A stretch of 64,000 nt of DNA from a virus (lineage: Duplodnaviria > Caudoviricetes). Positions within the stretch are counted from its first letter, which is position 1. Every line of letters begins with the position of its first letter. Location of the stretch: IMG/VR virus record IMGVR_UViG_3300028833_000119, positions 21,214 to 85,213 of that record. One strand, 5' to 3'. The notes below the pieces were generated by a model that saw nothing but the letters and a program-made list of their open reading frames with translations, did not search any database and was not told the DNA's origin. The translations under genes were made by a program, and so were the position numbers. Positions 1 to 40,956 of this stretch are shown here, piece by piece.

Positions 1-2381
1 CGGATACCACGGACTTTTGCCATTGTACGTCCTGTGTTAATATCGTCATCATTGGCGGCGTTCTTCAGGTAAGCAGCGATGAACTGCTCAGGATGATGAT
101 GGCGTAGATAACCACACATATATGACAACAGGCTGTATCCTACTGCGTGGTTATAATTGAAGCTGTACTCACTGGAATCCTCGATGACTTTCAGGAATTC
201 TTTTGCTTCTTCCTCTGCTTCTTCTCGCGGCTTATCAGAATTTTTACAGTAACCGTCAAGAATCTCAGGCATTGCTTTGTCAATCTTGTCGCGCTTCTTC
301 TTAGATATCGCACGACGGATGGTGTCGGCGTATGAAGCAGACAGGCCGCAAACCTTTTGTAGAAATTCGATGACCTGTTCCTGATAGCAACAGAATCCAT
401 AGGAGTCCCAGAAGATTTCATCAATCTGTTTTGTTGGATTCTTGTGCCGTTTCCTCGCAAATAACTGATCACGATAAGACGCACTGCCAGGGCGGAGAGC
501 AGCGTTCACAACAGTAATCTCTTCGATACTGCGAGGTTTAAACTTTTTAATAGAGTCAGAAGCAAAGTCAGATTCAAACTGGAATACGCCGCTTGTGTCA
601 TTACAGATATCGTCCCATACATCCTTGTCACAGAAGTCTATTTCATTCATACGAGGGTAGGGAAGACCAAGCAGTTTATATGTGTCGCTGATAACCTGAA
701 CCGTCTTCAAGATTAACAGATCGTATTTCACAAGATTGACTGTGCTGGCTTCATTCATATCAATGAGCAAGCAACGTTCGCCATCCTTGTTAAACACTCC
801 CCAGTTTTCTTCGAGCGGTTCGCAACAGATGACCATGCCAGCTGGGTGAACTGACTGTGAAACACGAGTACCAACCATTGCATTCTCATAATAAAAAAGA
901 TCCGGGTATTTTTTACGGGTAGTATCCTGGTCTGTTTTATATTCTTTTTTGATTGCCTGCAGTTTCAGAGGATTATATGGATTCTTATGGTCGAACTTAT
1001 ATTTTACTTTATCCATTCGACCATTCTCTTTAAACTTCTCAGGAAAGTGTTCTCGTTCCCACATAATCCCAAGACCGCCACCACAGTCATCAATAAACGA
1101 GAGGTCGGCAATCGTACCATATGCAGCGACCCTGGCACATTTATCGGCACCAAACTTTGAGATGATATATTCGAAGATTGCAGGACGATCGCTTTCAATA
1201 CAGTCCTCGTCAACGTCTGCCAGACTGACGCGTTCACTGTTACAGAACCGGCTGAAGTTCGTATGCCACTGAACAGGATTCAAGTCTGTAATACCAGTAA
1301 CATACGCGACACGGGAACCGCTGACAGATCCACGGCTTGGACCAATTGGCTTACCGGTATCACGGCACCAGTTAATGATCTCGTGCATGGAAAGCATGAA
1401 CCCACCCATATTTGTCTGATGGAACGCATCAAACTCTTCTGTGATATCACGGCGAAATTCTTCTTCCTGCTCCTTTGGAATCACGCCGGATTCAATTTTC
1501 TCATCGAGCATCTTCCATGTAACTTCATGAAGTTTTTCTTCGTCAGCTTCAGGAGATCCGTACAGCACAGGATACTTTGGACGCTTATCCAGTGACCAGT
1601 CTTCAACAAGATCGGCCATTACATTTGTGTTTTCAATAGCATCCATGTAAACACCGCGAGGCAATGCATCCTGTTTTTCATATGCATCGATCAGTTCATC
1701 ATAATTCTTCCATGTCATATCCCAGCCATCTTCGTTGTATTTTTGTTCCTTATACTCTAGTAATACATCTCTTGCCTGGGCTTTTATTATAGAAGATGAA
1801 TGAGTATCTGTACCGGCAATCAGCGGTATACCTGTCTGCTGAGACAGCTTTAATAACCAGCGGTTATAATCTTTCTGATCCTGCACATTATGGTGCTGGA
1901 TCTCAAGATAATCAAACGCACGAACAATCTCCATATATCTCGGATCTGTATGTTCGATACGGTTGAGAGGCGAGGCAAGACATGCACTCGTCTTAATAAC
2001 ATTACTGGAAATATTCAGGAGCTGGTCTATACTTATTCTCGGCGAATAATAGAATTGTTCAGGCTGAGTCGCGAGATTCATCAGGCGATTAATCTCATGA
2101 AACCCTTCTTTATTACGGGCGAGGAGACACACATGCATATTATCTCTGACCTTTGGATCGAGAGAATATGTGACATATGCTTCTACACCAAAGATAAATT
2201 TTATACCTTTGCTGTCGCAATAATCTTTCTTCTCAACCCAGGAACGCGGAAGGCCGTGCTCTGTTGACCCAATGGCTTTCATGCCCTGTGCAACAGCAAG
2301 ATCTACATATTCAGAATATTTTGAACAGCTATCAAGAAGCGAAGAATCAGAATGAAGATGGTAACATACAAAATTACCCAC
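1..2381 (-). CDS. dnaE: DNA polymerase III alpha subunit (C-terminus runs off window)
   Basis: Hand translation: GTG start at 2381 with AGGAGG RBS; PHP motif 'YHLHSDSSLLDS..STEHG..FGVEAY'; near the window start 'YSFNYNHAVGYSLLSYMCGYLR'; both ends in the same frame. Confidence 0.93.
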   Translation of the reverse strand, partial: MGNFVCYHLHSDSSLLDSCSKYSEYVDLAVAQGMKAIGSTEHGLPRSWVEKKDYCDSKGIKFIFGVEAYVTYSLDPKVRDNMHVCLLARNKEGFHEINRLMNLATQPEQFYYSPRISIDQLLNISSNVIKTSACLASPLNRIEHTDPRYMEIVRAFDYLEIQHHNVQDQKDYNRWLLKLSQQTGIPLIAGTDTHSSSIIKAQARDVLLEYKEQKYNEDGWDMTWKNYDELIDAYEKQDALPRGVYMDAIENTNVMADLVEDWSLDKRPKYPVLYGSPEADEEKLHEVTWKMLDEKIESGVIPKEQEEEFRRDITEEFDAFHQTNMGGFMLSMHEIINWCRDTGKPIGPSRGSVSGSRVAYVTGITDLNPVQWHTNFSRFCNSERVSLADVDEDCIESDRPAIFEYIISKFGADKCARVAAYGTIADLSFIDDCGGGLGIMWEREHFPEKFKENGRMDKVKYKFDHKNPYNPLKLQAIKKEYKTDQDTTRKKYPDLFYYENAMVGTRVSQSVHPAGMVICCEPLEENWGVFNKDGERCLLIDMNEASTVNLVKYDLLILKTVQVISDTYKLLGLPYPRMNEIDFCDKDVWDDICNDTSGVFQFESDFASDSIKKFKPRSIEEITVVNAALRPGSASYRDQLFARKRHKNPTKQIDEIFWDSYGFCCYQEQVIEFLQKVCGLSASYADTIRRAISKKKRDKIDKAMPEILDGYCKNSDKPREEAEEEAKEFLKVIEDSSEYSFNYNHAVGYSLLSYMCGYLRHHHPEQFIAAYLKNAANDDDINTGRTMAKVRGI

Positions 2382-5844: not shown

Positions 5845-6433
5845 CCTTCTTCTCCTTTGATGCTTCGCCGGTAATTGCTTTGGCAAGATTGTTGATCGCA
5901 TCGCAGATAAATTTAGTAGGCTGCGGATTGGAATCGTATTCTTTTGGCTTTTGCTCGGTTTTCTTTGGTTCAGGCTTTGGTTCGGCCACAGGTTTCAGGT
6001 TATCCATGTCGCACTCTTGCATGATCGCCTTGGCCCGGGAGGTAGAACCGAACATCTTCTTCATGCAGGCCATGGCAAACCCGGCGTATTTCTCGTAGGG
6101 CTGGTCTTCCATGCATTTGACTACGGTTTTTGTTCCGTCGTCCCAGAAGACGATCGTTGCCGGAGGATTGAAGATAATACGATCGACGTCAGGGATACCC
6201 CACATCATCGGATCTTCTTCCTCGAGCTCAAGTTCGCAGTCGAAACATTCTTCCTGGCAGAGATCGCACTCAGAACAGTCAAGATCACAGAATGGGATTT
6301 CTTCGTCAGGAATATCTTTGGTTACAGTTTCTTTGGTTTCACTTACAGGTATCAAACGGCAATCATGCCAGTAATAACTACCATCACCAGTATGTATTGC
6401 CTGAAGCAACAAGGAATCAAAATCATCAACCAT
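5825..6433 (-). CDS. Conserved phage hypothetical protein
   Basis: ORF with RBS; 'IFNPPATIVFWDDGTKTVVKC' block; Cys/acid-rich stretch. Confidence 0.7.
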   Translation of the reverse strand: MVDDFDSLLLQAIHTGDGSYYWHDCRLIPVSETKETVTKDIPDEEIPFCDLDCSECDLCQEECFDCELELEEEDPMMWGIPDVDRIIFNPPATIVFWDDGTKTVVKCMEDQPYEKYAGFAMACMKKMFGSTSRAKAIMQECDMDNLKPVAEPKPEPKKTEQKPKEYDSNPQPTKFICDAINNLAKAITGEASKEKKDETPAE

Positions 6434-6553
6434 ATTATTTCCTTCCTGCCGGTTGTTCCGGCGGTTGTTTATTTGTTTTAGTTAAAATGGAATGAATAAT
6501 ATATTATCTAAACAAGGATAAAATTGGCATTATAGATAATATATGCGCTGTAA

Positions 6554-8413
6554 TCAGAACGGCTGGCGATCGAGCTGGGAAAGCTGAATACCATACTCGG
6601 GCATGGAGTCAGCGCGTGGCTTCGGTTTGGTTAATCCGGTATGATCCCACGAGAAATGGTTCAGGTCACCCTTGTCAGCCTGGAAGATCCTGCGTGAATC
6701 ACCAGCATAACAACAAGGAATATTGACTTGCTTGCCATCAAGACGTGACTTGATAATCTCAAGGTCAGGACGCTTGATAACAATCGCGTTATCGCACAGG
6801 TTCATAATGGAAGATGTGCCGGAGATATCGTCACGCGTGATCTCGGCACCTACTTTTGTCTTCCTTGGGTGTGCGACAAGCATGACATGCGCCTGATAAT
6901 GGGTTGCGAACTTTTTAATTGCGTTAATGAAGATTGCCTGCGCTCGCCATTCATCATCAGAGTCTGCAACGGAAGTCATCATGTTATCAATCAGGAAGAG
7001 CTTTGCATTGTACTTGCGAGCAGCCTGTGTGAAGACATTGATGATTGCGTCCGTCTGCTTCAGGTCAACGAACTGTTCGTTGTTGTCATAAAGCAGAAGC
7101 CTGTCGCCAAGCCAGTCAAGAATACGATGCTGGATTTCCGGGGAAACATACGGAATATTTCGTCCACGGATCGGGTCCCATTTCAGGCCGATCCAGTCAC
7201 TTCCTGCAGCCTGTGCCAAGATCCATTCCTGAAACAATCCTGCGGAGAGTTCACCGGAATACGCAACACATGTATATCCCTGTTCGATTGCATTCAACAG
7301 GATCAGGCCGGACAGCGTTGATTTACCGTTGCCGGACTTGCCGGTGAACACAGTGACACAACCCTCGGCAAGACCGCCGATTGCATCGTCCAGCGCAGGA
7401 ATATTGGTTTTGATCCGGGGAATCTTGGTTGGATCAACAGGAATAATATCAGCGACCCGGATGAGCCCTTTTGTTTTTACATCGTCGGCGGACTCAACCA
7501 TTTCGATCAGCGCGGACTCGCCGAAACGATACAGGATTTCGTTGGCATCCTTGCAATACTGCACAGGATTTGTACCCGGAATCTCCGGGTAATCCTTAAC
7601 AATCAGGACCCTGTATTCACCAAGCTTTTTTGTCCAGTTCTCAACGCCACGATGACCAGGCGCGTCGTTATCACCGAACAGGATAATGGTCTGGAACTTT
7701 TCAAGCCAGTCATAGCAATATGTGATCCAGTCGTTGTTGTCCACACCGCATGGGACAGACACAACATTGGTCAGACCGGCTTCATACAGAGACAACGCAT
7801 CAATCTCGCCCTCAGTAATAATAAGCGGCTGATTAAAAACAACCCCGTCCATGTTGTACAGGATTGCCTTGGTGCCGGACTCCTGCCATTCCTTGCGGCC
7901 TTTATCTTCAGGCAACGGTTTTCTTGGCTTGCGGAACTTATGATATACATCCTCGCCGTTCCAGAAGAACCGAAAAACAATGTTGCCTTCCTTATCGGAT
8001 CCAATCCTCAGCGCATCCACAGTCGAACGCGAGATTTTACGCGACTCAAAATACCTGTATATTTCTTCGGTCGGATCAAAGACAGAAATACTCGGAAGAA
8101 CAAACTGTTTGTCGGATTTCTTTGAAAAAACAGAACGATTCAGTTTTACGTCCTGACCTGACAATTCCTTGACAAGCTCTTCAAACCTGCCGTGGCGCCC
8201 ACAGGAACCGCGCTTGCAGACGAATGTACCGTTGTTTAAAAACAGCGCAAAGGTATGTTTATCTTTTCCGTGAGAACCGCCGTGACACAAAGGACAAAGG
8301 TCAGGAATGATTTTCTCATCCTGGCCCGAAGTCTTAATGGAATATGGCGCGAGATACTTGTCAGCGAAATCTACGATCCGTTGCCTTTGCTCTTGGTCAA
8401 GCAAACCACTCAC
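6554..8413 (-). CDS. Bifunctional primase-helicase (Zn finger + TOPRIM + DnaB-like), T7 gp4/Twinkle-like
   Basis: 'CPLCHGG..CKRGSC', 'ITEGEIDALS', 'FGDNDAPG', Walker A 'GKSGNGKST', 'LVAHPRK'. Confidence 0.92.
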   Translation of the reverse strand: MSGLLDQEQRQRIVDFADKYLAPYSIKTSGQDEKIIPDLCPLCHGGSHGKDKHTFALFLNNGTFVCKRGSCGRHGRFEELVKELSGQDVKLNRSVFSKKSDKQFVLPSISVFDPTEEIYRYFESRKISRSTVDALRIGSDKEGNIVFRFFWNGEDVYHKFRKPRKPLPEDKGRKEWQESGTKAILYNMDGVVFNQPLIITEGEIDALSLYEAGLTNVVSVPCGVDNNDWITYCYDWLEKFQTIILFGDNDAPGHRGVENWTKKLGEYRVLIVKDYPEIPGTNPVQYCKDANEILYRFGESALIEMVESADDVKTKGLIRVADIIPVDPTKIPRIKTNIPALDDAIGGLAEGCVTVFTGKSGNGKSTLSGLILLNAIEQGYTCVAYSGELSAGLFQEWILAQAAGSDWIGLKWDPIRGRNIPYVSPEIQHRILDWLGDRLLLYDNNEQFVDLKQTDAIINVFTQAARKYNAKLFLIDNMMTSVADSDDEWRAQAIFINAIKKFATHYQAHVMLVAHPRKTKVGAEITRDDISGTSSIMNLCDNAIVIKRPDLEIIKSRLDGKQVNIPCCYAGDSRRIFQADKGDLNHFSWDHTGLTKPKPRADSMPEYGIQLSQLDRQPF

Positions 8414-9954
8414 TCCTTCAACGCTTCTTCAACCTGCTTATACCGACCTGACATCAGTTTATCCACCAGACACTTGTACGGATCCAGTTCGCCGGACATA
8501 ACCATGTCGGCAATGTTTGGCGAGAAACCGGATACCAGCGCAACGCCAAGTTCATTTGTAGTTACCGGAATAGTTCCTGTGCGTGAGCAGACGTTCCAGA
8601 AGATCAGGCGGGGGAGCTTATAGCCGGCGGATTCCCAGCGGTTACGAATCGTATCGAAGAGCGTCTGATCGACCTTGGAACAGTAATACAAATAACTGCA
8701 ACAAGCTGTTGCCTGGTCGAACTCCATGTCACTGACGATCAGCACATTCGCCGGGAGCTCCTCCTGTTTCAGATGGTTCCTCACGGCGGTATCAAGGATC
8801 AGATCGAACGTCTTTTCGATGTTCGTGTTCGAGCACTCGTCATGATGACGCATGATCTGAAGTTTTGCCGCCAGTGTCAGGCCATCGTGGAAATGCACAT
8901 ACTTCGGATTTGCAGAGAAGGTTATGAACGAATCCTTGTACGGACCCGTCAGTTTCTCTGAGAAGTAAATGCCAAGCGAACGCGCCACATCATGGCAGGA
9001 AACGCCTGTATTACCAACAGGTGAACCCATTGAACCGGAACCGTCAACGACAACCAGTGTGGAGCCGTTCTCAGGCACTTTGTTCGGCAGTGCTTTCCAC
9101 TGTTCCTCAAGCGTCGGATCGGCATCACACTTGTTTCGATACGCATGAACGATATCATACGGGAAAAGTACACCGGAATGGATCTTCGCTTTGCCTTCCT
9201 TGACATTTGTCAAGTACTCTTCATATCGATCGCCGTCATGGCGGAGGAAAGCGTCGCGATAATTCATGGCTGCGCGGGAAGGGACTCCTTCGTAGTCAAT
9301 CTCGCTCCACTGATTCGCAGACATCTGCTGTTCGACAACCTTGATGCGCCTGCGTAGACCTGAAAGATTCATGCGATACTGTGCCGGCGCCCATCCGAAC
9401 GCGTTTCGCAGGAATTCAGCCCTGCGGCGAGTTTCTTTGGAGGAAGTGTTGAGTGACGGTAACCACTTGGCAAGCAAAGAAACAGGCTGTTTGGTATTTG
9501 CCATCCGGATGTCCGACTGAATCTGCATACGGAGTAATTCGATCGCTTCGTCACGCACCTTGCACGGCACATGACCGAACACAACTTCGACCACATCATC
9601 CCAGCGGCCATAAAACGGAATCAGATGAAGCAGTTTGATCGCTGCGTCCTGGTTTTCATTGCAAAAACGCTCAAAAATCACGCGGAACGTACGTCTTTCA
9701 CCGCAACCTTCTCTCGCATCCCTGGCGAAGAACAGCCAAAGGATCGCAAGCGTCGGATTTTCATTGTACGCCGGCAAAAACTTGTTCCAGATCTCATCCG
9801 GAGACATATTTCGCATGGACGAAAGCGCAAAATTGCAGTCCAGCAGGGCTTTGCCGGTTGTGCGGAGTCCAACAGCGCCGTTTTCGGTTACGGAAACGTT
9901 CGGCTGAAGCCAGTAAGCTCTTTCGGCGAGCGCAGACATAAAATCACTCATCAT
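8410..9954 (-). CDS. DUF2828-family protein (TROVE/Ro60-like domain + vWA)
   Basis: 'TENGA..ARDAREGCGERRTFR..YGRWDD..SLLAKWLPS' and MIDAS motif 'VVDGSGSM'. Confidence 0.85.
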   Translation of the reverse strand: MMSDFMSALAERAYWLQPNVSVTENGAVGLRTTGKALLDCNFALSSMRNMSPDEIWNKFLPAYNENPTLAILWLFFARDAREGCGERRTFRVIFERFCNENQDAAIKLLHLIPFYGRWDDVVEVVFGHVPCKVRDEAIELLRMQIQSDIRMANTKQPVSLLAKWLPSLNTSSKETRRRAEFLRNAFGWAPAQYRMNLSGLRRRIKVVEQQMSANQWSEIDYEGVPSRAAMNYRDAFLRHDGDRYEEYLTNVKEGKAKIHSGVLFPYDIVHAYRNKCDADPTLEEQWKALPNKVPENGSTLVVVDGSGSMGSPVGNTGVSCHDVARSLGIYFSEKLTGPYKDSFITFSANPKYVHFHDGLTLAAKLQIMRHHDECSNTNIEKTFDLILDTAVRNHLKQEELPANVLIVSDMEFDQATACCSYLYYCSKVDQTLFDTIRNRWESAGYKLPRLIFWNVCSRTGTIPVTTNELGVALVSGFSPNIADMVMSGELDPYKCLVDKLMSGRYKQVEEALKE

Positions 9955-10540
9955 CTTCATCTCCTTTATCAAATTCGTCGTACTCTTCCTTGAGTTTTTT
10001 TATTTTTTTATCAATTGCCTGAAAACATACCCCAAACTGACCTGCTATTTCACGTATATTCATGCCATACAAACGCATTGATGCAATCCGTTGTGTGCTT
10101 TCATTCTGTGTAGACATAAAAAGATTGAAATCTATTTCTGTCTCTTTGTCCGGGACCCAATGTTTTGACATACCATCAATTTCAATCCCGCTCGACACGA
10201 GAACGTCATAAGAAACTGTTGCAGGAATTGAATTGGTTATCTTGGTAAAACTGGACGTTCTTAACGGGACGGAAACAGACTGGTTTTGCAATACCAGTCT
10301 GCTCATTGCGTTTGTCGCATCGTACCATGGGAACTTGTTTATCTTTTCTTCTGTGTCGCAGTTGCGGATATATTTCAAGAACGCAATGGCAACTTCCTGG
10401 ACACAGTCATCATAAGATGCCTGACGTGCACTTTTGCCTGTATACCTTGCCATAAAATTATCGACAGACCGATAAATTTTCGGCATGTTCTGCTCGATTA
10501 ATTCGGCTTCGCGTTCCCTGGACAATTGCATAAGAAACAC
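9944..10540 (-). CDS. Sigma70/ECF-like sigma factor
   Basis: Region-2-like 'YDDCVQEVAIAFLKYI' and C-terminal HTH 'YGMNIREIAGQFGVCFQAIDKKIKK'. Confidence 0.75.
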   Translation of the reverse strand: MFLMQLSREREAELIEQNMPKIYRSVDNFMARYTGKSARQASYDDCVQEVAIAFLKYIRNCDTEEKINKFPWYDATNAMSRLVLQNQSVSVPLRTSSFTKITNSIPATVSYDVLVSSGIEIDGMSKHWVPDKETEIDFNLFMSTQNESTQRIASMRLYGMNIREIAGQFGVCFQAIDKKIKKLKEEYDEFDKGDEDDE

Positions 10541-10635
10541 TCCCTCCCATTCACGTATTCATGTGATGGTGAGGGAGTGAATGTGTAAAACGTGCGATCC
10601 CTCACACTATTTGGTTTTGTGAGAATATTTAATCT

Positions 10636-11085
10636 TTAGAAAGGAAGTCCATTATCGAATTCTACAGGCGTAAACCCTGGATTCTGCGTATAAGTCTGTG
10701 CGGGCGCCTGCTGATAAACAGGAGCCTGTGCGGCGGGAGCGGACGCCTGTGCCTTTGCTTCGGATTCAGCCCTGGTTTCAATCAGGTCAATTTCCGCGTT
10801 ATTGATCTCAACGGCGGTGTGCTTGACATTATCGCTTCCAACATAATCGCGGATCACAAGATCTCCGGACACTCCTACACGGTGACCTTTCCGCAGAAAT
10901 TTCGTCGCGATATCCGCAGTCGCTCCCCATGCGGACACGCGGTAGAAGTTGGTGCCGTACTGATTTGTCTGCTTATCCTTGTTCTTGTTCTGCGCGGCAA
11001 CGCTGAAGTTCGCCACATTGCGACCGTTGAAGTCCTTTACCTCAACATCGCTTGCCATACGACCGATTACAGTAATTCTGTTCAT
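10636..11085 (-). CDS. ssb: Single-stranded DNA-binding protein
   Basis: 'MNRITVIGRMASD..ANFSVA..FYRVSAWG..KGHRVGVSG', C-terminal 'DNGLPF'. Confidence 0.95.
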   Translation of the reverse strand: MNRITVIGRMASDVEVKDFNGRNVANFSVAAQNKNKDKQTNQYGTNFYRVSAWGATADIATKFLRKGHRVGVSGDLVIRDYVGSDNVKHTAVEINNAEIDLIETRAESEAKAQASAPAAQAPVYQQAPAQTYTQNPGFTPVEFDNGLPF

Positions 11086-11097
11086 AAAATTTCTCCT

Positions 11098-12072
11098 TTA
11101 CACATTGAATGCATGATACAGTTTGGTTAATACATCGATATCAGTGACCTGTTTATAATTTGCAGTGCCGCAAATCTCGATCACCTTTGCCTTGGTTCCT
11201 TCCTTGTCCGCAGCTGCAGCGGCAACGATCAGCGGGTCAACCACGGCGAGCGCCTTTGCAACGCGGTCGGAAAGATCGGAAGGAGCGGGGGAGGGAGCGG
11301 GAACTTCCGCAGTCTTTGGCGCAGGGACAGCGCCGGACGAAAGCCATGCATACATCTGTTTGCCGGTATTCTCGTCAATCACAAAATATTTTCCATCAAA
11401 CATTCCGGTACGGTCTTTGGTGGCATTGGCAACATGGTCATAATCCAGCATAAAAGACACAGTAAACTCGTACTCAATGCCTTCTTTCATAACAACGCCC
11501 ATACCGAGAGCTTTGATCTGCTTTTTCCCACTTTCGTTCGTCGTCTGCTGGTATTCCATCTTGGCTCTCATATTTGCTATAATATGAGCGGGAGACTGCA
11601 GCATCGCATCAACAAGCTTGTTGTGCTTCGGGGTGATAGTCCTCCACGCCGTCCACGAATTACCGGAACGCTCGGCGATTTTGCCCTGCTGGTCCAGAGC
11701 GCCGCCGGCTCCTGCCCATGCGTGGGAAAGACTGTCAATGATAATTACATTCATTCCATAGTTTTCCGCCATATGAATAGCATCCACAAAAACATCTGGT
11801 TCAAAAGGCGGAGGAAGCGGAATTGTGTTATACTCGCCAATTACTGTAGCACCAACCTGTTTGCCGACATACAGAGAACCGGAGCCGGATTCCGTATCAA
11901 TAATACAGATCTTGCTCCATATTTCCGCTTCGGAAAGATTCGGATATTCCGCTCTGGTAATACCATAAGCCATCAGAAGCGAGCTCATGGTTTTCCCGGC
12001 TCCTGCGGGGCCTGCGATAGAAACTTTGATACGAACCTGTTCTCTTTGAGCTTTCTTAAACTGAAGCGCCAT
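11098..12072 (-). CDS. AAA-family ATPase (Sak4-like recombination/annealing ATPase)
   Basis: Walker A 'GPAGAGKT', 'IIIDSLSHAW', adjacent to ssb. Confidence 0.8.
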   Translation of the reverse strand: MALQFKKAQREQVRIKVSIAGPAGAGKTMSSLLMAYGITRAEYPNLSEAEIWSKICIIDTESGSGSLYVGKQVGATVIGEYNTIPLPPPFEPDVFVDAIHMAENYGMNVIIIDSLSHAWAGAGGALDQQGKIAERSGNSWTAWRTITPKHNKLVDAMLQSPAHIIANMRAKMEYQQTTNESGKKQIKALGMGVVMKEGIEYEFTVSFMLDYDHVANATKDRTGMFDGKYFVIDENTGKQMYAWLSSGAVPAPKTAEVPAPSPAPSDLSDRVAKALAVVDPLIVAAAAADKEGTKAKVIEICGTANYKQVTDIDVLTKLYHAFNV

Positions 12073-12171
12073 AACTTATTTCTCCTTTTTCGTATTTATT
12101 CGGTTTCCTGTCACTATTTATGGGAACATTTTTGCCTTGTTTGTCTACCAGTTTGAAAAATATTTTTTTTA

Positions 12172-12666
12172 TTAAGCTGCGATAAACTTCAGATAGAACC
12201 CGCGAAGCTTAATCTGCTTTTCTTTGCTCTCATTCTCAACATATTTGGCCATAGGAACATTGCCCCAACCAAATGCTTTTGCTGCCTGTGTAATAGACGG
12301 GTACTCGCCAATCTTTTTGCCGTTCGGAGCATATTTGCCGATCTTCCTGGGCTTCCGACTGTGAGATTTTTCCGCAGGGACAGTATCCTTGGCTTTTTCA
12401 GCTTCCTGTTTCAGCCTGATAAATTCCGGAACTGGCCTTTCCGCAGGTTCTTCGGTGATTGCAGGGTTGCTGTCATCTTTTACAAGCTCAAGGGACTCAA
12501 CAGCCATTTTGATTGCGGCATGTTTATCGTTCAGCTTGTTAATTTCCGCTTCCAGAACACCAAGCCGGAAACGAACAGCGTTTGCCTCTTCATTTCTTTC
12601 TTTCAGCGTTTTCGCGATCGAGGCCTCTTCTTCTTTTAACTGAGCAACCATTAAAGAAAGTTCCAT
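12172..12666 (-). CDS. Coiled-coil protein with C-terminal NUMOD1-like HTH
   Basis: ATG at 12666 with RBS; 'GKKIGEYPSITQAAKAFG'. Confidence 0.6.
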   Translation of the reverse strand: MELSLMVAQLKEEEASIAKTLKERNEEANAVRFRLGVLEAEINKLNDKHAAIKMAVESLELVKDDSNPAITEEPAERPVPEFIRLKQEAEKAKDTVPAEKSHSRKPRKIGKYAPNGKKIGEYPSITQAAKAFGWGNVPMAKYVENESKEKQIKLRGFYLKFIAA

Positions 12667-12820
12667 ATTGTTTTTCTCCTTTCTAATCGTACAATAATAC
12701 AAACTGTTCCGTTGCGTCCGTACACAACCGTCACATTCGTTACAATTTTTATAAAAATTTCCGGCGGAAAAAAAACACGGCCCACGTTTTTGTGAGTCGT
12801 GTGAGTTTCTTCCTATTATA

Positions 12821-13735
12821 TTATCTGCCCCAGGCAAGGGAGTTGACAGCATCATGCCGCTGCTCCGCAGTGGAGTGGTCGTACCGGTTGGTGATGGCCA
12901 GGGACTTGTGGTTCGCAAGGTCCCTGGCAACCGCTCCGCCGCCGATCTTCTCGACCGCAGATACGAACGAGTGCCTGAATACGTGCAAGCCACCTTGATA
13001 TCCCTTATCCAGAATTCCGGCCTTCTTCTGCTTGTTCGTCATAGCGTACCAGAGCTGGTTTGGGCTGCATGGCATACCATGCGTGGTTATGAAAAGCGGA
13101 TCGCTGTCCTTGATGTCCTTCCGCGTCTTCAGGTACGTCTCCACATACTTGTACGCAAATTCCGCCACATCCACATCCTTGATGGCGCCGCCCTTACGGC
13201 GAACACGCACATATCCGTGCTTGTAATTCCGCAGATGCCCCACCGTCAGCTGGCAAAGCTCTGATGCGCGGAGGCCTGTGCCGATAAACATGGCGATGAT
13301 CGCCCTGTCACGCTTCTTCAGGTCGGAGTCGCGCTTTGGAATTGCCAGCAGCTTTGAGATGTCCTCATCGGAGTAGTACTTATCCTTCGGCTTCTCCTCA
13401 TCCGGGATCTGATCATAAGAGGGGAGCCGCATCGTCTTCAGCACGTTCGACACATCCGGAATGTCCGGATAGATCGTATGTGCCCAGCGAAGGAACGGAT
13501 TAATTGTTACCACATAGTTATTGATTGTGGACGGCTTCTTGTCCTTCTTGAACGCATTGAACCAGCGCTGCAGTGAAGCGCCGGTCAACCCGTCGATGGA
13601 TTCCTCGTTCATCTTAACACCGAAGTCCTCCATCTGGCGGAAGACCCGCTGAAGAACGTCGATATGGTGTGCCACAGAGGTTTCTGCGATACTGCAGGAC
13701 TCGACATAGAAATCGATCATCGGATACATACACAT
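12821..13735 (-). CDS. Tyrosine recombinase/integrase
   Basis: Catalytic residues 'GLRASE', 'HVFRH', 'ANH', 'RYDH'. Confidence 0.92.
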   Translation of the reverse strand: MCMYPMIDFYVESCSIAETSVAHHIDVLQRVFRQMEDFGVKMNEESIDGLTGASLQRWFNAFKKDKKPSTINNYVVTINPFLRWAHTIYPDIPDVSNVLKTMRLPSYDQIPDEEKPKDKYYSDEDISKLLAIPKRDSDLKKRDRAIIAMFIGTGLRASELCQLTVGHLRNYKHGYVRVRRKGGAIKDVDVAEFAYKYVETYLKTRKDIKDSDPLFITTHGMPCSPNQLWYAMTNKQKKAGILDKGYQGGLHVFRHSFVSAVEKIGGGAVARDLANHKSLAITNRYDHSTAEQRHDAVNSLAWGR

Positions 13736-34860: not shown

Positions 34861-35126
34861 CGAGTTATGAGTTTGAAGTTGCGGCGAAGAATGCCGTGAT
34901 TGAAATGCTGGCGAAGCGCGGGATTGACGCGAAGATTGAAGACTTGCAGCTGACGTGGTTTACACATTTGCTTGGAAACAAGAAGTGTATGATCTGGGGA
35001 GAGCCGATGGCGAATCTATATGCGGAGATCACGTATGCGCGTGACAGCCAGATAACGTATTGTGATCTTTACCAGAAGCTGGATCATATGGATCTGCACG
35101 ATTGGGAACTGGATTTTGAAGCGTGA
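34857..35126 (+). CDS. Conserved phage protein (DUF6275-like)
   Basis: 'LTWFTHLLGNKKCMI..YAEITY..YCDLYQK' resembles that family as I recall it. Confidence 0.5.
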   Translation: MTSYEFEVAAKNAVIEMLAKRGIDAKIEDLQLTWFTHLLGNKKCMIWGEPMANLYAEITYARDSQITYCDLYQKLDHMDLHDWELDFEA

Positions 35127-35133
35127 TATATAT

Positions 35134-35439
35134 GGGGTAGGCAAGAACAGGGAGGTCTGGGCGTGTGTAGGCGAGCGCGTAGCTGAAGCGGCAGACTGAT
35201 AAATGCCAAGAAGAAAATACAGCCCGTACGTCAGAACACATCGGGGCCAACCCGACGGGATTCGGAGGACGCAAGTGCCGAAGATAAACCTGACACAAGG
35301 CGTTTTGACATCTGACAGGGATGCGTGTGATTAAGTGGCGGTGGAGAAAGATCGGTACGATAAAGCGCCGGCGCGACTGCACACCCCCATATCTTTCAAA
35401 AAACCTGACAAGCACGAGGAGGTTAAGGCTACTGCACCA
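35134..35439 (+). ncRNA. Divergent tmRNA-like RNA
   Basis: 5' GGGGUAG pairs with 3' CUACUGC-A-CCA (G3:U70 wobble, G2:G71 mismatch); helix-2-like pairings; UA at -5/-4 of a GCC resume codon; T-arm non-canonical. Confidence 0.4.
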
Positions 35440-35466
35440 GGCAGCTTTTTCAGTCGTGCGTATCGA

Positions 35467-35526
35467 AAGACGCTAACAGCAAAAATTATACAATAACAAT
35501 TGGAATGTTACTATGCATGCGTCTTG
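35467..35526 (+). ncRNA. AAGACGC-RCAGCAA stem element, copy A
   Basis: AAGACGC/GCGTCTT closing stem, TAACAGCAA, internal TAACA-ATTGGAA-TGTTA stem-loop. Confidence 0.55.
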
Positions 35527-35550
35527 TTATTTTATATCGGAGGTGCTTAT

Positions 35551-38370
35551 ATGCTTTGCTGGAACGTTTATGTAAGTGACTTTAATTCCGGCAGGATTAA
35601 ACCTTATAACATCTTTCAGCACTACGGGTTTTATAACGAGTGCGTGAAAGCGAAGAAAAAACACAAAGACGACAAAGAAGGTTTTGGAAAAGACGTGCAT
35701 GGCTGGCTGATGTATTACTTCTGGTCGAAATGTGAATGGGAAGTCATCCTGGACCACTGGCCGTCCGGCGAGTTTTATAACATGCGCAAAGTGCTGACGC
35801 TGGAGGAAATGTACCATGACCTGAAGTATCCGGAAGACAAACTGTTCAGCGCGCCTGATAGGCGGTTCGAGATCCGCGTATTTCCGGAACACAACCGGTT
35901 CAGGGAAGAAAAGATTGACGTTTTTGCCCAAGTGGAAAACAACTGGGATATTTTTATTGATTGGCTATGGGATCACCGCAGTGAGTTGAAAGCGAGAAAA
36001 TAATATGGCGAAGAAAGAAGTAATGCTTGGTGTGCCGGATAGTCCGGAAGTTGAAAATGAAATAAGTTTGTTGGAGCATCGTGCTATTTTGTTTGGGTTC
36101 CCGGAGCATGCTGTCGAGATTGAGATTCAGGCGAAGGTTTTCGAAAACGGAGAACTGCTGAACGTAACAAAAAAAATGGATATGGATGAGATCCGCGAAG
36201 CTTTCCGGAAAGCGGATGACGGTTATGTTGATGATGATGATAGATTTGTGATTACCGATAAAGGAATTGCATATCTGGAAGAACACAATCAGCCCACTTA
36301 AAATCAATACAATTTTATAAGTAATGATAAGTAGATGAGTATTTACCCATCTCGTTTACCGGAGGTTCACTGACCATACTATTATTAATGGGGTGATCAT
36401 ACAAAATGAAGGCGAATCGATATGCGCGGAAGCGCCGGCACAAACGTGAGCTTGAGAAGAAATATGCGAAGAAGTATGCGTATGGTTCCGGACAATATGA
36501 TGTTCAATGGTTGCGTGAAAAGTTGCGGCGTGAAGCCCAGGAAGACAACTGGTGGATTCGAAGGCATCCTCCAAAGAATAATGGTTGGGAGTACTGGAGG
36601 ACATATTCCCTGTCCGGCAGGCGCGGATATGCAAAGAAATATTCAGACAAATGTATCCGGCAGAAGTACAGGCAAATGATCAAGTGCATTGATCCGGAGG
36701 ATGTGATTGCGATGAGGGGCGCTGATTATGAAAAAGAGTATGACTATTCGTGGACGATTTGGTAAATGGCGTGAGAAGCGCATGATAATCCGGAAGAACA
36801 AGGAACTGTGTGAGCGGTTCCCTTTTTTGATACCATGGCACAGGTTTACTGGCGAACGTTTCGTACAGCTGGACAGGCACGGAAAAATGAAAGCTGTTCA
36901 TGACTATGACTGGTCGTATACAGAACTTGACAGTATGCCGGATGGGTGGCGCAAAGCATTCGGAATGAAGATGTGCGAAGAAATCCGCGAAGAACTGATC
37001 AAGTGGAATGATCTTGACCGCTGGCAGATTATTGAGATGAAAGAGAAATACGGGCAGCTGCGTATTTATGACAACGGCATAAAGATTGGATGTCGTATTC
37101 ATGATATCGAGAGAAAATACGAACAGATCAGCGAGCGCACATGCATCGTGTGCGGTGCGCCTGCAACAAAGATGACGCTTGGATGGATTTCGCCGTACTG
37201 CGACAAATGCTGTCCGGAAGAGTACAGCGAGCCGATCGGCAAATATTTAAAGGGGGAAGATACAATTGTCTAATGAAATACAGGTAACTGAAAAGATGGC
37301 AAAGTTTATTGACTGGGTGACCAGCCTTGGCGAAGATGAGGTGCGTAAACGCATCCGGGATAAAATTAATGAAATCAAAAACCTGCCGCCGAACGTGCGC
37401 GACCGGGACGGTTATTACTGGGATATCCGGCTTGAGCCGAACGATGGGAATGATCAGTACAAACACGGCGGCGACTGCAATCTGTGTAAACGGCTGAAGT
37501 ATTGCGGGACAAAGTGCGGAGCAAATAAGGTTTTGAAGAAAATTACAACGCCTTATCTGTACCAGATGTATATTGACGAAAACCCGGAAGTTGCCGCAGA
37601 AGAGGCAGCTGGTCGGATTACACCGGATGATATGTTGAAGATTGTGGGTGCGGACGATGGACAGCAGCCTGTTCTTTGATGATATTACATGGTGCATGAA
37701 AAGCGATTGTCCTATGAGGACATGCAGAAGGAACTCCGTGAACATGATCGATCGCACAGGACTTCATTCGTTCGCGATATTCAAAGGAACGGCAGACTGT
37801 CCGATCAGCCAGTCCCTGGACGAGTGCATGGACGGATGCCTTTACGCAAAAGAGTGCTTCGCAAAACACGACGATCCGGATGAGGCTTTGAGGGTGCTGG
37901 TGGAAGAATACTGTGACGACTGTATGTTTTCTTCTGCGGAGGAAGATTAATGAAAGAGATTATTACTGAAAAGCAAATGAAGGATGCGTTCAGGGTTGCG
38001 TATGATTTTATGAACAAACATAATTCAATCCTGCATGAAGCGGATGAGTATACCCGTACGGTTAACGAGATTTATGGGGTTGCAAAGACATACGGTGTTA
38101 ATCCTTTGATGATGCGCCTGGTTGTTGCATGCTACGAATTTATCTGCGACAAGTCATTTGCAATTCGTTCACAGGAGGGAAAAGATGACACCTGAAGAAC
38201 TTCTTGAAGATCTTGAGACATGCACAGGGCCTTGCGGACGGATGTGTATGTCATGTCCGGAAAGCAGGTATGTTGCAGAAATCCGCGAAGTGCTTGTAAC
38301 GCTTATGGATGAAAACAAGAAATTGCGCGAGGCGCTCAGAGGATATACAGGGGAGGTTGATTTTTTATGA
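35551..38370 (+). CDS. Eight middle-region hypothetical ORFs (35551-36003, 36005-36301, 36406-36765, 36782-37273, 37266-37679, 37657-37950, 37950-38195, 38185-38370)
   Basis: Abutting ORFs; 36782-37273 carries 'EMKEKYGQLRIY..CIVCG..YCDKC'. Confidence 0.72.
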
Positions 38371-38518
38371 TCAGTGCATGGTGGCTGCTGTTGATTGTTC
38401 CCGCGTCGGCGTTGTTGGGTATTTTTTGTATCGCTTTATGTTCGGCATCGAGGACAGATGACTGACATGCTTGCATATTTGCCGATTTATTTAATTATAT
38501 AAGAGGGAAGGGATTATA

Positions 38519-39202
38519 TTGGCGACAGGACATAAAATTATCGAACCTTCCGGCAGGACTTCTGTTGCGATGATCGATAACCATGAAAGTGCCGTTGCGT
38601 ATGTGAACGGCATATAGGAGAAGTGGTCCGGTTATTGCGATAAAAATTGGTTGAACGATTCCGGTGATGTGTATACGCCGGAATTGAAGATCAAGTATTT
38701 TCTTGACGGACTTGCTTATTTGCTGCTGATCGGAAACACGGATGGCATAGAAACGAACTATAAACGTGTGATGAATGCGAAGCGTGAGATTCCGGCGTCA
38801 AGCTGTCCGAGTGAAATCGAGAACCTGTTGTATGGAACCGGATGCTCGACGGATTACGCAGAGGAAGAGGAAGCCCAGTTCCGGGATATGCTGGACAGGC
38901 TTGACAGCAAAGCGGAGCCTTATGAATGCAGGAAAACAAAACGAGACAGGAAATGCAGCCTGTTTGCGAAGAAACTGCAGAAAGGCATACCGGACGGAGA
39001 CTGGTATCTTGTTGATACGGAAGGAAGATTCAGGGTCGGCGACCAATGCTATATTATCGAGGATAACGCTGTACAGTACCAGCCGGTCCAGACGGAGTAC
39101 GGCAATTATTACGCGATGGATAAAGTCCTGTATGCTGGCGGCAAATTCTACGATATGAATTATGACGAAGTGATTGTCCTTCAAGTCGGGACGGAGACGT
39201 AA
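38519..39202 (+). CDS. Hypothetical protein containing an in-frame TAG (38615-38617)
   Basis: TTG start after GAGGGAAGG RBS; 32 sense codons, TAG, then continuous frame into track ORF 38651-39202, which has no RBS of its own. Confidence 0.65.
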
Positions 39203-39215
39203 AACCCGTCTGCAT

Positions 39216-39322
39216 AAGACGCACACAGCAAACCATATACATATTAAAAACTTCTTAATAATAGTTTTCCGGCAACGCCTCCTGACAGTGCGGACCAGTG
39301 CCGGCCTTTTTATTGCGTCTTG
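39216..39322 (+). ncRNA. AAGACGC-RCAGCAA stem element, copy D
   Basis: AAGACGC-ACACAGCAA ... GCGTCTTG with two internal hairpins (including CCGGCA/TGCCGG). Confidence 0.55.
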
Positions 39323-39328
39323 TCTTAT

Positions 39329-39402
39329 TGCCTGTTAGCTCAGTCCGGAAGAGCGTCGCACTGTTAATGCGAATGTCACAGGATCGAAGCCTGTACAGGC
39401 AG
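39329..39402 (+). tRNA. tRNA-Asn (GTT)
   Basis: TGCCTGT/ACAGGCA acceptor, GCTC/GAGC D-arm, TCGCA-CTGTTAA-TGCGA, ACAGG-ATCGAAG-CCTGT; CCA not encoded. Confidence 0.9.
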
Positions 39403-39500
39403 CGAATTGCGGTATAAGTTTTCGGACTTATATCTGGGTGGCCGGATGCGTCCGGCTTCCTGCACCAAGCTGTGCGAAACATCCGCCGAACGGCGGACAT

Positions 39501-39580
39501 GGCCGTGTATGCAAAATGGAAAAGCAGTGGCTTCTAAACCCATGGAATTATTCTGGGTTCGACTCCCAGCTCGGCCACCA
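39501..39580 (+). tRNA. tRNA with CUA anticodon (amber suppressor candidate; Leu- or Tyr-like body)
   Basis: GGCCGTG/CTCGGCC, TGC/GCA D-arm, GTGG(C)-TTCTAAA-(C)CCAT, 9-nt variable region, CTGGG-TTCGACT-CCCAG, A-CCA encoded. Confidence 0.75.
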
Positions 39581-39643
39581 AAGACGCTTGCAGCAAACTT
39601 GAAGCATCAGACTGTTAATCTGAAGAAGCTAATCGGCGTCTTG
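39581..39643 (+). ncRNA. AAGACGC-RCAGCAA stem element, copy B, with Asn anticodon arm
   Basis: AAGACGC-TTGCAGCAA..TCAGA-CTGTTAA-TCTGA..GCGTCTTG. Confidence 0.6.
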
Positions 39644-39653
39644 CTACATTTTG

Positions 39654-39715
39654 AAGACCCATACAGCAAACAACTGATGAAGCTACAGAGGATGATGAGC
39701 AGAAAGCGGGTCTTG
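39654..39715 (+). ncRNA. AAGACCC-RCAGCAA stem element, copy C
   Basis: AAGACCC-ATACAGCAA ... GGGTCTTG (compensatory change in the stem). Confidence 0.6.
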
Positions 39716-39735
39716 GATATTTCAGCCAAGAGGAA

Positions 39736-40956
39736 GTGAAGGGATTGAGCAGGTCTATTGAATCGCTCAATGTAAAGGAAAAAGCGAGCCTTGTCCAGGA
39801 GATGCTGGACAAGAAAACCGGGGTTTTGGATAAAGACTGGTGCGACATGGTCATGGATTACGATCTGGATTGTAATCCGGAAACCCTGCGGAAAGCCGGG
39901 GTCGGCGTAAAGCTTGCAAGCGACGCAGGAATGTGTTTCCCGATTGACGGCGCTGTAACCCGCGACGTTATGGATGGTTATGTTGAGCGCCAGAAACTCT
40001 ATGACCTTCAACGCGGAATCAGGAAAGACCTGCGCGAACAATCCAGAAGCGAGCTGCTTCGGGAGATGATCTGCAACGCGATTAAAGCGCTGCCGAAGAT
40101 CAATGTGTCTGTATGCCAGGAGAGAGTTGAACATGAAGCCGACAGAAGCCGCGAGCTGGTTGTCGGGATCGGTGATTTCCATTACGGCGCCAGGTTTACG
40201 GTGGAAGGCCTGTACGGCGAGGTGCTGAATACGTATGATCCGTATGTGTTTGATGAACGGATGGGAATGCTGATTCACGAGGTTAAACAGATTGCGAAAA
40301 CACACAAACCGGAAATGATTACCGTGATGATTGTTGGCGATATGCTGGACGGAATGATTCATACATCGCAGCTGACGAGGCTTGAATACGGCGTTGTCGA
40401 GAGCGCGATGCGGCTCAGTGAATATCTTGCGCAGTGGCTTGCCGAACTGAATCGCGAGACAGGCGTCCCGGTTCGTGTGTACGCTGTCCGTGGAAACCAC
40501 GGCGAGATCAGGCCGCTCGGAACCAAGGCAGGACAGTTCCCGGAGGAAAACCTGGAGCGGGTTGTTATGCATTACCTGGCCATGCGTTTTGAGGACAACG
40601 ACGTTATCCTCGTAATGGACGATGACGCGCCGATGAGCCGCGTTGTTGATGTGCTGGACTACAACTTCCTGCTGCTCCATGGACAGGGAAACGACATTGA
40701 AACAATCGCCCGTGACTGCCAGACACTCTATAATAAGAAGATAGATGTGTTTATGGTCGGGCATTTACATAAAAACCAGACGTTCACCGCAGGAATGGGA
40801 CGGAACGGCAATGTGCTGATCGAGCGGATCCCGAGCCTGTGCGGAATGGATCCCTACGCGCAAAGCAAAGGATACGGGTCTCCGCCAGGTGCGACTGTGA
40901 TCGTGATGGAAAAAGGATACGGACGCAAGTGTGTGTATCCGATTGTATTAAGCTAA
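39736..40956 (+). CDS. Calcineurin-like metallophosphoesterase
   Basis: Motifs 'GDFHYG', 'VGDMLDG', 'RGNHGE', 'HG', 'GHLH'. Confidence 0.85.
   Translation: MKGLSRSIESLNVKEKASLVQEMLDKKTGVLDKDWCDMVMDYDLDCNPETLRKAGVGVKLASDAGMCFPIDGAVTRDVMDGYVERQKLYDLQRGIRKDLREQSRSELLREMICNAIKALPKINVSVCQERVEHEADRSRELVVGIGDFHYGARFTVEGLYGEVLNTYDPYVFDERMGMLIHEVKQIAKTHKPEMITVMIVGDMLDGMIHTSQLTRLEYGVVESAMRLSEYLAQWLAELNRETGVPVRVYAVRGNHGEIRPLGTKAGQFPEENLERVVMHYLAMRFEDNDVILVMDDDAPMSRVVDVLDYNFLLLHGQGNDIETIARDCQTLYNKKIDVFMVGHLHKNQTFTAGMGRNGNVLIERIPSLCGMDPYAQSKGYGSPPGATVIVMEKGYGRKCVYPIVLS

Follow-up and report, generated by a model that had tools for sequence, protein, structure and literature searches.

Four repeats in a phage tRNA array

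The window analysed here is a 64,000-nt stretch of the virus record IMGVR_UViG_3300028833_000119 (positions 21,214 to 85,213), in which a terminase, tRNAs and a Shine-Dalgarno site before an open reading frame (ORF) point to a phage of bacteria. Our subject is a short repeat, present in four copies that are spaced like tRNAs inside a small tRNA array. The two ends of each copy are complementary, and we call the copies handle RNAs after the terminal structure they share, and the variable sequence inside it the cargo. The features of the locus are as follows.

35467-35526, + strand: handle RNA copy 1, 60 nt; closing stem AAGACGC/GCGTCTT, then TA, ACAGCAA and a 3' G
39216-39322, + strand: handle RNA copy 2, 107 nt; closing stem AAGACGC/GCGTCTT, then AC and ACAGCAA
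39329-39403, + strand: tRNA-Asn(GUU), found by ARAGORN; Rfam tRNA 60.9 bits
39501-39580, + strand: amber-suppressor tRNA (CUA) with encoded CCA, found by ARAGORN; Rfam tRNA 39 bits
39581-39643, + strand: handle RNA copy 3, 63 nt; closing stem AAGACGC/GCGTCTT, then TT and GCAGCAA
39654-39715, + strand: handle RNA copy 4, 62 nt; closing stem AAGACCC/GGGTCTT (compensated swap), then AT and ACAGCAA

A preliminary description of this DNA, made from the sequence alone, had reported four copies at these positions, and a pattern search of the window confirmed them: AAGACSCNNRCAGCAA has four perfect matches, all on the + strand, beginning at 35467, 39216, 39581 and 39654. Allowing up to two mismatches gave six matches, against a mean of 1.44 in shuffled sequence, and none of 100 shuffles reached six. 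In each copy the 3' close is the exact complement of the first 7 nt, 60-107 nt downstream, and is followed by a G. All four copies have one layout: the terminal stem is of 7 bp, RCAGCAA comes 2 nt later, and the G at the 3' end is unpaired. The compensatory swap that had been described in the stem is present in the fourth copy. The motif was correctly placed beside the 5' strand of the stem, although not immediately beside it as had been written, since 2 nt intervene. Similarly, the statement that every copy adjoins a tRNA-like gene fails for copy 1, whose neighbour is a non-coding stretch of about 265 nt with no recognisable tRNA. Model and pattern searches of the whole 85-kb phage record found these four handle copies only.

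The cargo differs from copy to copy. That of copy 1 is a hairpin of 5 bp with a 7-nt loop, TAACA-ATTGGAA-TGTTA, the arm with a UGG triplet that had been noted before, and ATTGGAA-type loops are seen again in loci L071 and L078. Copy 2, which ends 6 nt before the tRNA-Asn, holds a small A/U hairpin and a second, G+C-rich one in which ACGCCUC and UGCGGACCA are conserved blocks; this cargo is kept in two relatives (L126, 2417-2518; L128, 5253-5351), where both blocks are invariant and the outer stem covaries. The hairpin module of copy 2 is terminator-like in the window, being followed by a U run, while its counterpart in L128 has no U run. The Asn-type arm reported previously lies in the third copy, where TCAGA-CUGUUAA-UCUGA mimics an anticodon arm at tRNA positions 27-43 and is flanked by a 3-bp extension, AGC/GCU. 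It is also this copy whose first base directly follows the CCA of the CUA tRNA, again as reported. Copy 4 carries no anticodon-like arm, and a metallophosphatase ORF begins 20 nt past its end; elements syntenic to it in L125 and L127-L129 have different stems and cargos.

None of the copies is itself a tRNA. ARAGORN finds the Asn and CUA tRNAs only, and copy 3, which has no T arm, scores 12.2 bits against a threshold of 29. Rfam searches of the window and its sub-regions, at gathering and at permissive thresholds, likewise returned just the two tRNAs, the repeats remaining unmatched up to E 10 in a 151-nt slice, and the earlier failure to recognise a named family was therefore fair. A promoter and terminator scan of 35000-39900 was uninformative, with fewer promoter-like sites than in shuffled sequence. 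The closing stem is present in the minimum-energy fold of all four copies, but single-sequence z-scores are weak (-0.7 to -2.1), and the case therefore rests on comparison with other sequences.

The handle covaries across a large family of phage RNAs

Viral contigs were searched with the 5' motif alone, which returned 116 loci, most of them chance matches. In 30 of the 116, GCGTCTT(G) occurs 40-150 nt downstream of the motif, and these loci contain many further copies on other stems (AAGACAC, AAGGCAC, TAGACAC, GAGGCGC, TAAGCAC and ACGACAA among them), every stem being closed by its complement and a following G. A test blind to pairing was applied to 574 RCAGCAA sites whose preceding 7-mer was other than AAGACGC, the stem by which loci had been ascertained. 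In the true register, 45 of these sites, with 27 distinct stems among them, had a perfect Watson-Crick partner plus G 28-230 nt downstream, while four control registers of the same test gave 0, 4, 0 and 3 sites.

Alignment of 16 sequences gave the same picture: 95.6% of cells were paired, compared with 73% after shuffling and 33-54% when the partner columns were slid, and 9 of the 12 pairs showed changes on both sides. The covariance model built on this alignment, R1, has 94 matches in 375 kb of phage tRNA arrays. When 93 distinct sequences were aligned with the model, the terminal helix was 98.7% paired and all six modelled pairs had changed on both sides, and the observed pairing and covariation were equalled by none of 500 shuffles. 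The preliminary description had proposed a covariance model and a covariation test, and the helix does covary across phage homologues. Among the window copies, R1 scores copy 1 at 43.5 bits (E 2.3e-7), copy 3 at 63 bits (E 4.9e-12) and copy 4 at 28.5 bits (E 1e-3); copy 2 is not detected by it because the insert is long.

The consensus handle reads W-A-G-R-C-N-N, N-N, A-C-A-G-C-A-A and an unpaired 3' G, with G-U pairs tolerated in the stem. We looked for a stem extending beyond 7 bp and for pairing of nt 8-9 with the 3' side, and found neither. Relatives of the window phage, with 61-70% identity in the neighbouring metallophosphatase, hold two to five handle RNAs at the same place, on stems that are new again (GAGACGC, GCGACAC, GCGGCTC, TCGACTC). 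Judged by these sequence comparisons, the four repeats are genes for small non-coding RNAs, members of a very large phage RNA family with one handle.

Cargo is modular and often derived from tRNA

Handle RNAs occur inside phage tRNA arrays in the same orientation as the tRNAs. Often 4-11 nt separate the 3' end from the next tRNA, and 0-9 nt the 5' end from the preceding one. In short elements, of 48-75 nt, there is usually a single hairpin, its stem of 5 bp closing a 7-nt loop and continued, past a 1 x 3 internal loop, by a helix of 3-7 bp. Those of 110-140 nt hold a circularly permuted tRNA: first a small hairpin, then the T arm, the closed acceptor stem and finally the D arm. Elements of about 115 nt consist of a small hairpin and a complete tRNA, with Asn, ochre-suppressor and opal-suppressor types among them. 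Three permuted-tRNA members align end to end with the Rfam family YrlA, at 27.7, 33.5 and 43.4 bits, well short of its gathering score of 69.

Hairpins with a 7-nt loop on 5 bp or more occur in 87 of 165 short elements (shuffled mean 31), and 55 of the 165 have the U33/R37 signature as well, the second loop nucleotide being U and the sixth a purine (shuffled mean 5.9, maximum 11). These anticodon-like loops begin at nt 32-33, in the tRNA register, and their commonest triplets are UUU, UGA, GUU, UGG and UUG. Anticodon-arm mimicry in the handle family is statistically real. The arms singled out in the preliminary description are also real and recurrent, because those of copy 3 (CUGUUAA) and copy 1 (AUUGGAA) fall in the enriched class. 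At the near-identical loci L054 and L078 the loop is GAU in one and UUU in the other, and the flanking helix has changed in a compensating manner. The proposal of a fixed handle with swappable cargo has thus been borne out, the handle being invariant across phages of unrelated hosts while the interior varies, but not its restriction of the cargo to anticodon loops, because copies 2 and 4 have none and sister elements hold permuted tRNA bodies or whole tRNAs.

Matches to ROOL RNA (about 351 bits) and tmRNA lie in the same arrays (L078:8451-9079, L054:39-667, L019:1296-1636 and L025:3902-4222, all on the - strand). In the phage tRNA array of L013, positions 2327-2377 (+) give a sub-threshold match to the type-P1 twister, at 41.1 bits where the gathering score is 67.2 (E 5.7e-6).

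The phage encodes a protein with a predicted Ro60-like fold

PF11443 was found in the window phage's own record, in the following gene.

8413-9972, - strand: gene for a putative Ro60-like ring protein (DUF2828 and DUF7788/vWA), from Pfam and AF2/Foldseek

Pfam scores for this ORF are 115 bits for DUF2828 and 148 bits for DUF7788, and the DxSGS motif of the MIDAS, or metal ion-dependent adhesion site, is invariant in 18 sequences. Homologues in metagenomes number more than 7,900, and in the Protein Atlas the DUF2828-type family is mostly viral. We modelled the protein with AF2 (pLDDT 84.8, pTM 0.76) and compared the model with the PDB using Foldseek. The top 12 chains were all Ro60/TROVE proteins (from Thermus phage phiLo, Xenopus and human, and Deinococcus Rsr), aligned over the full length of about 520 columns with E from 1.8e-8 to 1.8e-5 and template modelling (TM) scores of 0.43-0.56, while the chains ranked below them were isolated vWA domains only. 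On the strength of this model, the protein is predicted to have a Ro60-like fold, with an alpha-helical (HEAT-repeat) ring and a vWA domain bearing the MIDAS. A sequence search of the protein against the PDB gave no match, the relationship being visible by fold comparison only.

The gene lies within a replication module (window 6557-12993, -), together with genes for a primase-helicase (Toprim and DnaB-like AAA), a sigma-70 region 2-like protein, a single-stranded DNA-binding protein and an AAA_24 ATPase.

Handle RNAs and the Ro60-like gene occur together

DUF2828 is present in all nine handle-bearing records that are at least 58% complete and missing from two handle-bearing fragments (28% and 51% complete); it is found in none of five complete control phages of 113-372 kb. 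Adjacency was examined in 80 loci picked by the protein alone from at least 558 viral contigs. All 152 R1 matches in these loci lie on the strand of the DUF2828 gene, and a strict pattern gave 179 matches on the gene's strand versus 5 on the opposite one. By this pattern, 65 of the 80 loci hold at least one handle RNA. The matches peak in the 500 nt ahead of the start codon and form another peak immediately past the end of the gene. Sixteen of the 65 handle-carrying loci are without any tRNA, which ties the RNAs to the gene itself and not just to tRNA arrays.

The pairing extends to cultured phages. Homologues of the protein are present in at least 711 of 50,697 GenBank phage records, in groups that include Felix O1-type, P100-type Listeria, Campylobacter, staphylococcal and mycobacterial phages, and unannotated handle RNAs flank the gene in Mycobacterium phage Netyap, Listeria phages LP-048 and cka11, Escherichia coli phages Alf5 and Bas63, and Campylobacter phage NCTC12673. 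The stems of these RNAs are unrelated (UGGACGC, AGGAAUC, AGACCAA, AUGGUAC), while ACAGCAA and the 3' G are constant. In Netyap, three handle RNAs, none with an annotated tRNA close by, come after a gene labelled 'Ro-like RNA binding protein'; LP-048 and cka11 have three handle RNAs each, and in Bas63 four follow the DUF2828 match, bas63_0130 (gp130).

The Bas63 handle RNAs, unannotated in GenBank, lie at 82072-82907 of the record (MZ501086). The last two of them overlap bas63_0137 and bas63_0138, small minus-strand coding sequences annotated 'hypothetical protein', which are therefore doubtful. LP-048 (locus L214) has an RtcB-like RNA ligase gene at 5855-7066, 1.3 kb downstream of the Ro60-like gene, a neighbour that recalls the rsr-yrlBA-rtcBA operon of Salmonella (PMC4201824). 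The top-transcribed region of the Listeria phage CKA15 (26,236-26,727; PMC12282133) does not coincide with the handle RNAs of its sister phage cka11 (25,553-25,816) if the two genomes are collinear.

Comparison with known systems

The design of the handle RNAs can be compared with that of YrlA, a tRNA-like Y RNA bound by bacterial Ro60/Rsr (RF02553; Chen et al. 2014, PMC4201824). In both, a stem joins the two termini, its 5' strand is neighboured by a short single-stranded motif that is conserved, the rest of the RNA is a tRNA-imitating module, and the genes, often several per genome, stand beside and co-oriented with that of a Ro60-type ring protein. In the permuted-tRNA class the likeness extends to the order of the parts, with the motif near the 5' end followed by the V hairpin, T arm, closed acceptor stem, D arm and paired ends. 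The two differ, however, in the motif, which is ACAGCAA and not GNCGAA(N)G, in the protein, which is of the DUF2828/DUF7788 type and undetected by Pfam TROVE, and in the range of cargo, which is much wider in the handle family (bare anticodon arm, whole tRNA, non-tRNA modules). The T arm, D arm and closed acceptor domain, present in other handle members, are found in none of the four window copies, to which the YrlA model gave no match at E up to 10. A further difference is that the window RNAs lie 26 kb from the protein gene; across the family, 65 of 80 loci have them near it.

Thermus phage phiLo offers a second comparison, since its Ro60 binds the stem-plus-CGAA RNAs Yrl1 and Yrl2 and forms a particle with the host polynucleotide phosphorylase (PNPase) (PMC12135203; PDB 9KOP, 9L5Y). 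The phiLo protein is a phage Ro60-type ring with a vWA domain and is the best structural match to the window protein, and the 5'-3' stem of its RNAs flanks a loop with the binding motif. Unlike the system described here, with which it shares about 15% protein sequence identity, phiLo uses the motif CGAA, and its RNAs lie outside a tRNA array and have no tRNA-derived cargo.

Two recent papers note phage Ro60-like proteins. A preprint describes gp130 of Bas63, a Felixounavirus, as a Ro60-like protein with possible Y RNAs among the tRNAs that counters the Ppl defence system (PMC11482910), and the same guess, of a Ro60-like protein with Y RNAs near tRNA genes, has been made for CKA15_055 of a Listeria phage (PMC12282133). 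Bas63 gp130 belongs to the protein family of the window protein and so do the matches in the P100-like Listeria phages LP-048 and cka11; we assume membership for CKA15_055 too, given that the gene layout matches. Neither paper identifies the RNAs or the handle, and ACAGCAA RNAs are not defined in the phiLo paper either. The RNA half of the pairing thus appears to be undescribed in the literature, the protein half having already been noticed in annotation and in these two papers. Our literature search on DUF2828/DUF7788 found no functional study.

A further resemblance is to the Class I RNAs of dictyostelids, which are about 60 nt long (42-65) and have a short 5'/3' stem, an 11-nt motif, CCUUACAGCAA, by the 5' strand and a variable rest (PMC7919456), and for which the search pattern GTTGRCCTTACAGCAA ... 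GTCAACTG has been given (PMC5054030). In GTTGRCCTTACAGCAA, ACAGCAA takes up nt 10-16, and the phage handle has it at this very offset; the length, the terminal stem, the variable remainder and the many copies per genome are alike too. The Class I RNAs differ in having a conserved 5' G, a 3' CUGU tail and a motif that extends to CCUU, which the phage handle lacks. They are also eukaryotic, with an upstream DUSE promoter element and the RRM protein Rnp1A as the known direct binder, and none have been reported outside Dictyostelia (PMC7919456). This likeness, which is one of sequence pattern, may be convergent or due to chance, and we take it as a lead, not a finding.

Among phages, the stable RNAs C and D of T4 are small RNAs of unknown function that lie inside the tRNA cluster and are cut out with the tRNAs. 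Their genes, like those of the handle RNAs, encode small RNAs other than tRNAs from within a tRNA array of a phage; no shared handle is known, no sequence comparison having been made.

Handle RNAs as probable partners of the Ro60-like protein

We consider it likely, on the evidence above, that the handle RNAs are Y-RNA-like subunits of a phage Ro60-like particle. The handle, that is, the 7-bp end helix, 2 nt, ACAGCAA and 3' G, would dock the RNA onto the phage's Ro60-like ring protein, and the handle RNAs would be that protein's counterpart of Y RNAs. The preliminary description had also suggested a protein-binding handle, which is probably right, and a substrate tether, which by analogy would fit the way known Y RNAs work. 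The variable interior would then be the working end (an Asn-type arm in copy 3, a UGG-type arm in copy 1, a G+C-rich hairpin in copy 2 and another module in copy 4), with the cargo deciding which tRNA-binding factor or RNA is engaged or sequestered by the particle, by analogy with Ro60-Y RNA-PNPase particles. The RNAs would probably be freed from the tRNA-array transcript by tRNA-processing nucleases, and their role would most likely be in counter-defence or in the control of RNA turnover during infection.

Several observations count against a Y-RNA-like partnership. Fifteen of the 80 protein-picked loci have no handle RNA within 6 kb, and 49 of the 65 that do carry handle RNAs also hold tRNAs, such that co-location may partly reflect a shared preference for tRNA arrays. 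The window RNAs are themselves distant from the protein gene, at 26 kb, and on the opposite strand, unlike those of most relatives. Pfam TROVE (PF05731) matches nothing in the record of the phage itself or in five others with handle RNAs, and ACAGCAA is none of the motifs by which Ro60 is known to bind RNA (GGUCCGA, GNCGAA(N)G and CGAA; PMC4201824, PMC12135203). Finally, Bas63 gp130 alone, without RNAs, rescued T7 on a Ppl host (PMC11482910), and therefore at least that activity may not need RNAs.

Another way to view the handle is as a device for processing or punctuating the tRNA array, in which an acceptor-like leader-trailer stem directs cuts by RNase P, RNase Z and exonucleases, or protects the ends, with no dedicated protein partner. 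The tRNA-like spacing in the arrays, the helix of exactly 7 bp followed by a single unpaired, discriminator-like G, and the presence of whole tRNAs, ochre and opal suppressors among them, inside some frames all agree with this, but it leaves unexplained both the invariance of ACAGCAA across phages of unrelated hosts and the linkage to DUF2828 (152 of 152 matches co-stranded; nine of nine records against none of five controls). The 16 protein-linked loci without a tRNA, and the three Netyap RNAs without an annotated tRNA nearby, also go against it, and we regard this explanation as unlikely. We would be similarly surprised if the RNAs were free-standing decoys or sponges, whose anticodon-arm mimics alone titrate host anticodon nucleases or tRNA-modifying enzymes while the handle only stabilises them. 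About half of the short elements, as well as window copies 2 and 4, have no such arm, other members hold tRNA bodies without any anticodon, and the linkage to the Ro60-like gene is again left unexplained. What recommends the decoy idea, which the preliminary description had raised, is the strong enrichment of the anticodon-loop signature in the tRNA register, the identity of the commonest triplets, Lys and Asn tRNAs being known nuclease targets, and the exchange of loop identity between L054 and L078 with compensation in the flanking stem. Decoy activity is, however, compatible with Y-RNA-like subunits as their downstream function, and is not a true alternative.

The remaining explanations are harder to reconcile with the data. 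Self-cleaving ribozymes that mature tRNA 3' ends, like the HDV-like theta ribozymes beside suppressor tRNAs in recoded gut phages, are brought to mind by copy 3, which starts after the CCA of a suppressor tRNA in a phage that uses in-frame TAG, a setting that matches the suppressor-tRNA context of theta ribozymes (PMC10879173). Against this, the strand order does not suit the double pseudoknot of the hepatitis delta virus (HDV) ribozyme, the 3' partner of the first helix closing the whole element; the sequence 5' of that partner (the P3/L3 site) is not conserved and the interiors vary freely; and the Rfam search, to E 10, has no match to HDV, hammerhead, twister, pistol or hatchet ribozymes. 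We rate a ribozyme as very improbable, and specifically rejected an HDV/theta identity on topology and the absence of a conserved core. A hammerhead was rejected by eye: copy 4 has CUGAUGA...GAAA, but stem II is unpaired and the motif is absent from the other copies. The probability is close to negligible that the elements are DNA repeats instead of RNAs, for example the terminal inverted repeats that bound a miniature mobile element, or sites of recombination. Such repeats would have short inverted termini, several copies and variable interiors, as seen here, but not the strict strand bias with respect to neighbouring genes (179 against 5), the tolerance of G-U pairs in the stem, interiors with RNA-type covariation, or an asymmetric single-strand motif conserved on one strand only.

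If the handle RNAs are indeed Y-RNA-like subunits, then the tRNA-derived modules on Y-type RNAs are much more varied than in the known YrlA design. A searchable handle now points, in the window and in many other phages, to the partner RNAs that were guessed at, not found, in the two recent papers, makes binding, structure and knockout tests straightforward, and accounts for many gaps and dubious small ORFs in the annotation of phage tRNA arrays. For one member of the protein family, Bas63 gp130, there is a report that it overcomes a defence system of bacteria (PMC11482910), and some of the phages with a Ro60-like gene belong to groups used in biocontrol. We can also envisage, as a long shot, that handle RNAs and the DUF2828 ring form a programmable particle, in which an exchangeable cargo of tRNA parts is aimed at tRNA-directed host factors such as anticodon nucleases and loops are swapped in an arms race, and that the stem-plus-ACAGCAA of the amoebal Class I RNAs reflects the same ancient RNA-protein partnership and not coincidence. 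Were this true, the amoebal Class I RNAs would gain a candidate partner.

Other features of the locus

Directly upstream of copy 1, about 265 nt are gene-free and G+C-rich (35128-35396, +), closed by AUAUGGGG/CCCCAUAU. ARAGORN and Rfam give no tRNA, tmRNA or other family in this region. It is partly kept in relatives, with 77% identity over 174 nt in L128 and shorter matches in L127 and L129, and its fold has a z-score of only -1.08. The 97-nt spacer between the tRNA-Asn and the CUA tRNA (39404-39500, +) has no family match, nor a blastn match to the fetched relatives; it contains G+C-rich hairpins, for example GGCCGGAUGCGUCCGGC and CCGCCGAACGGCGG. Just upstream of the RNA cluster, the ORF at 38519-39202 (+) has an in-frame TAG near 38615. 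Since there is also a CUA tRNA with an encoded CCA, the phage appears to use amber read-through or recoding.

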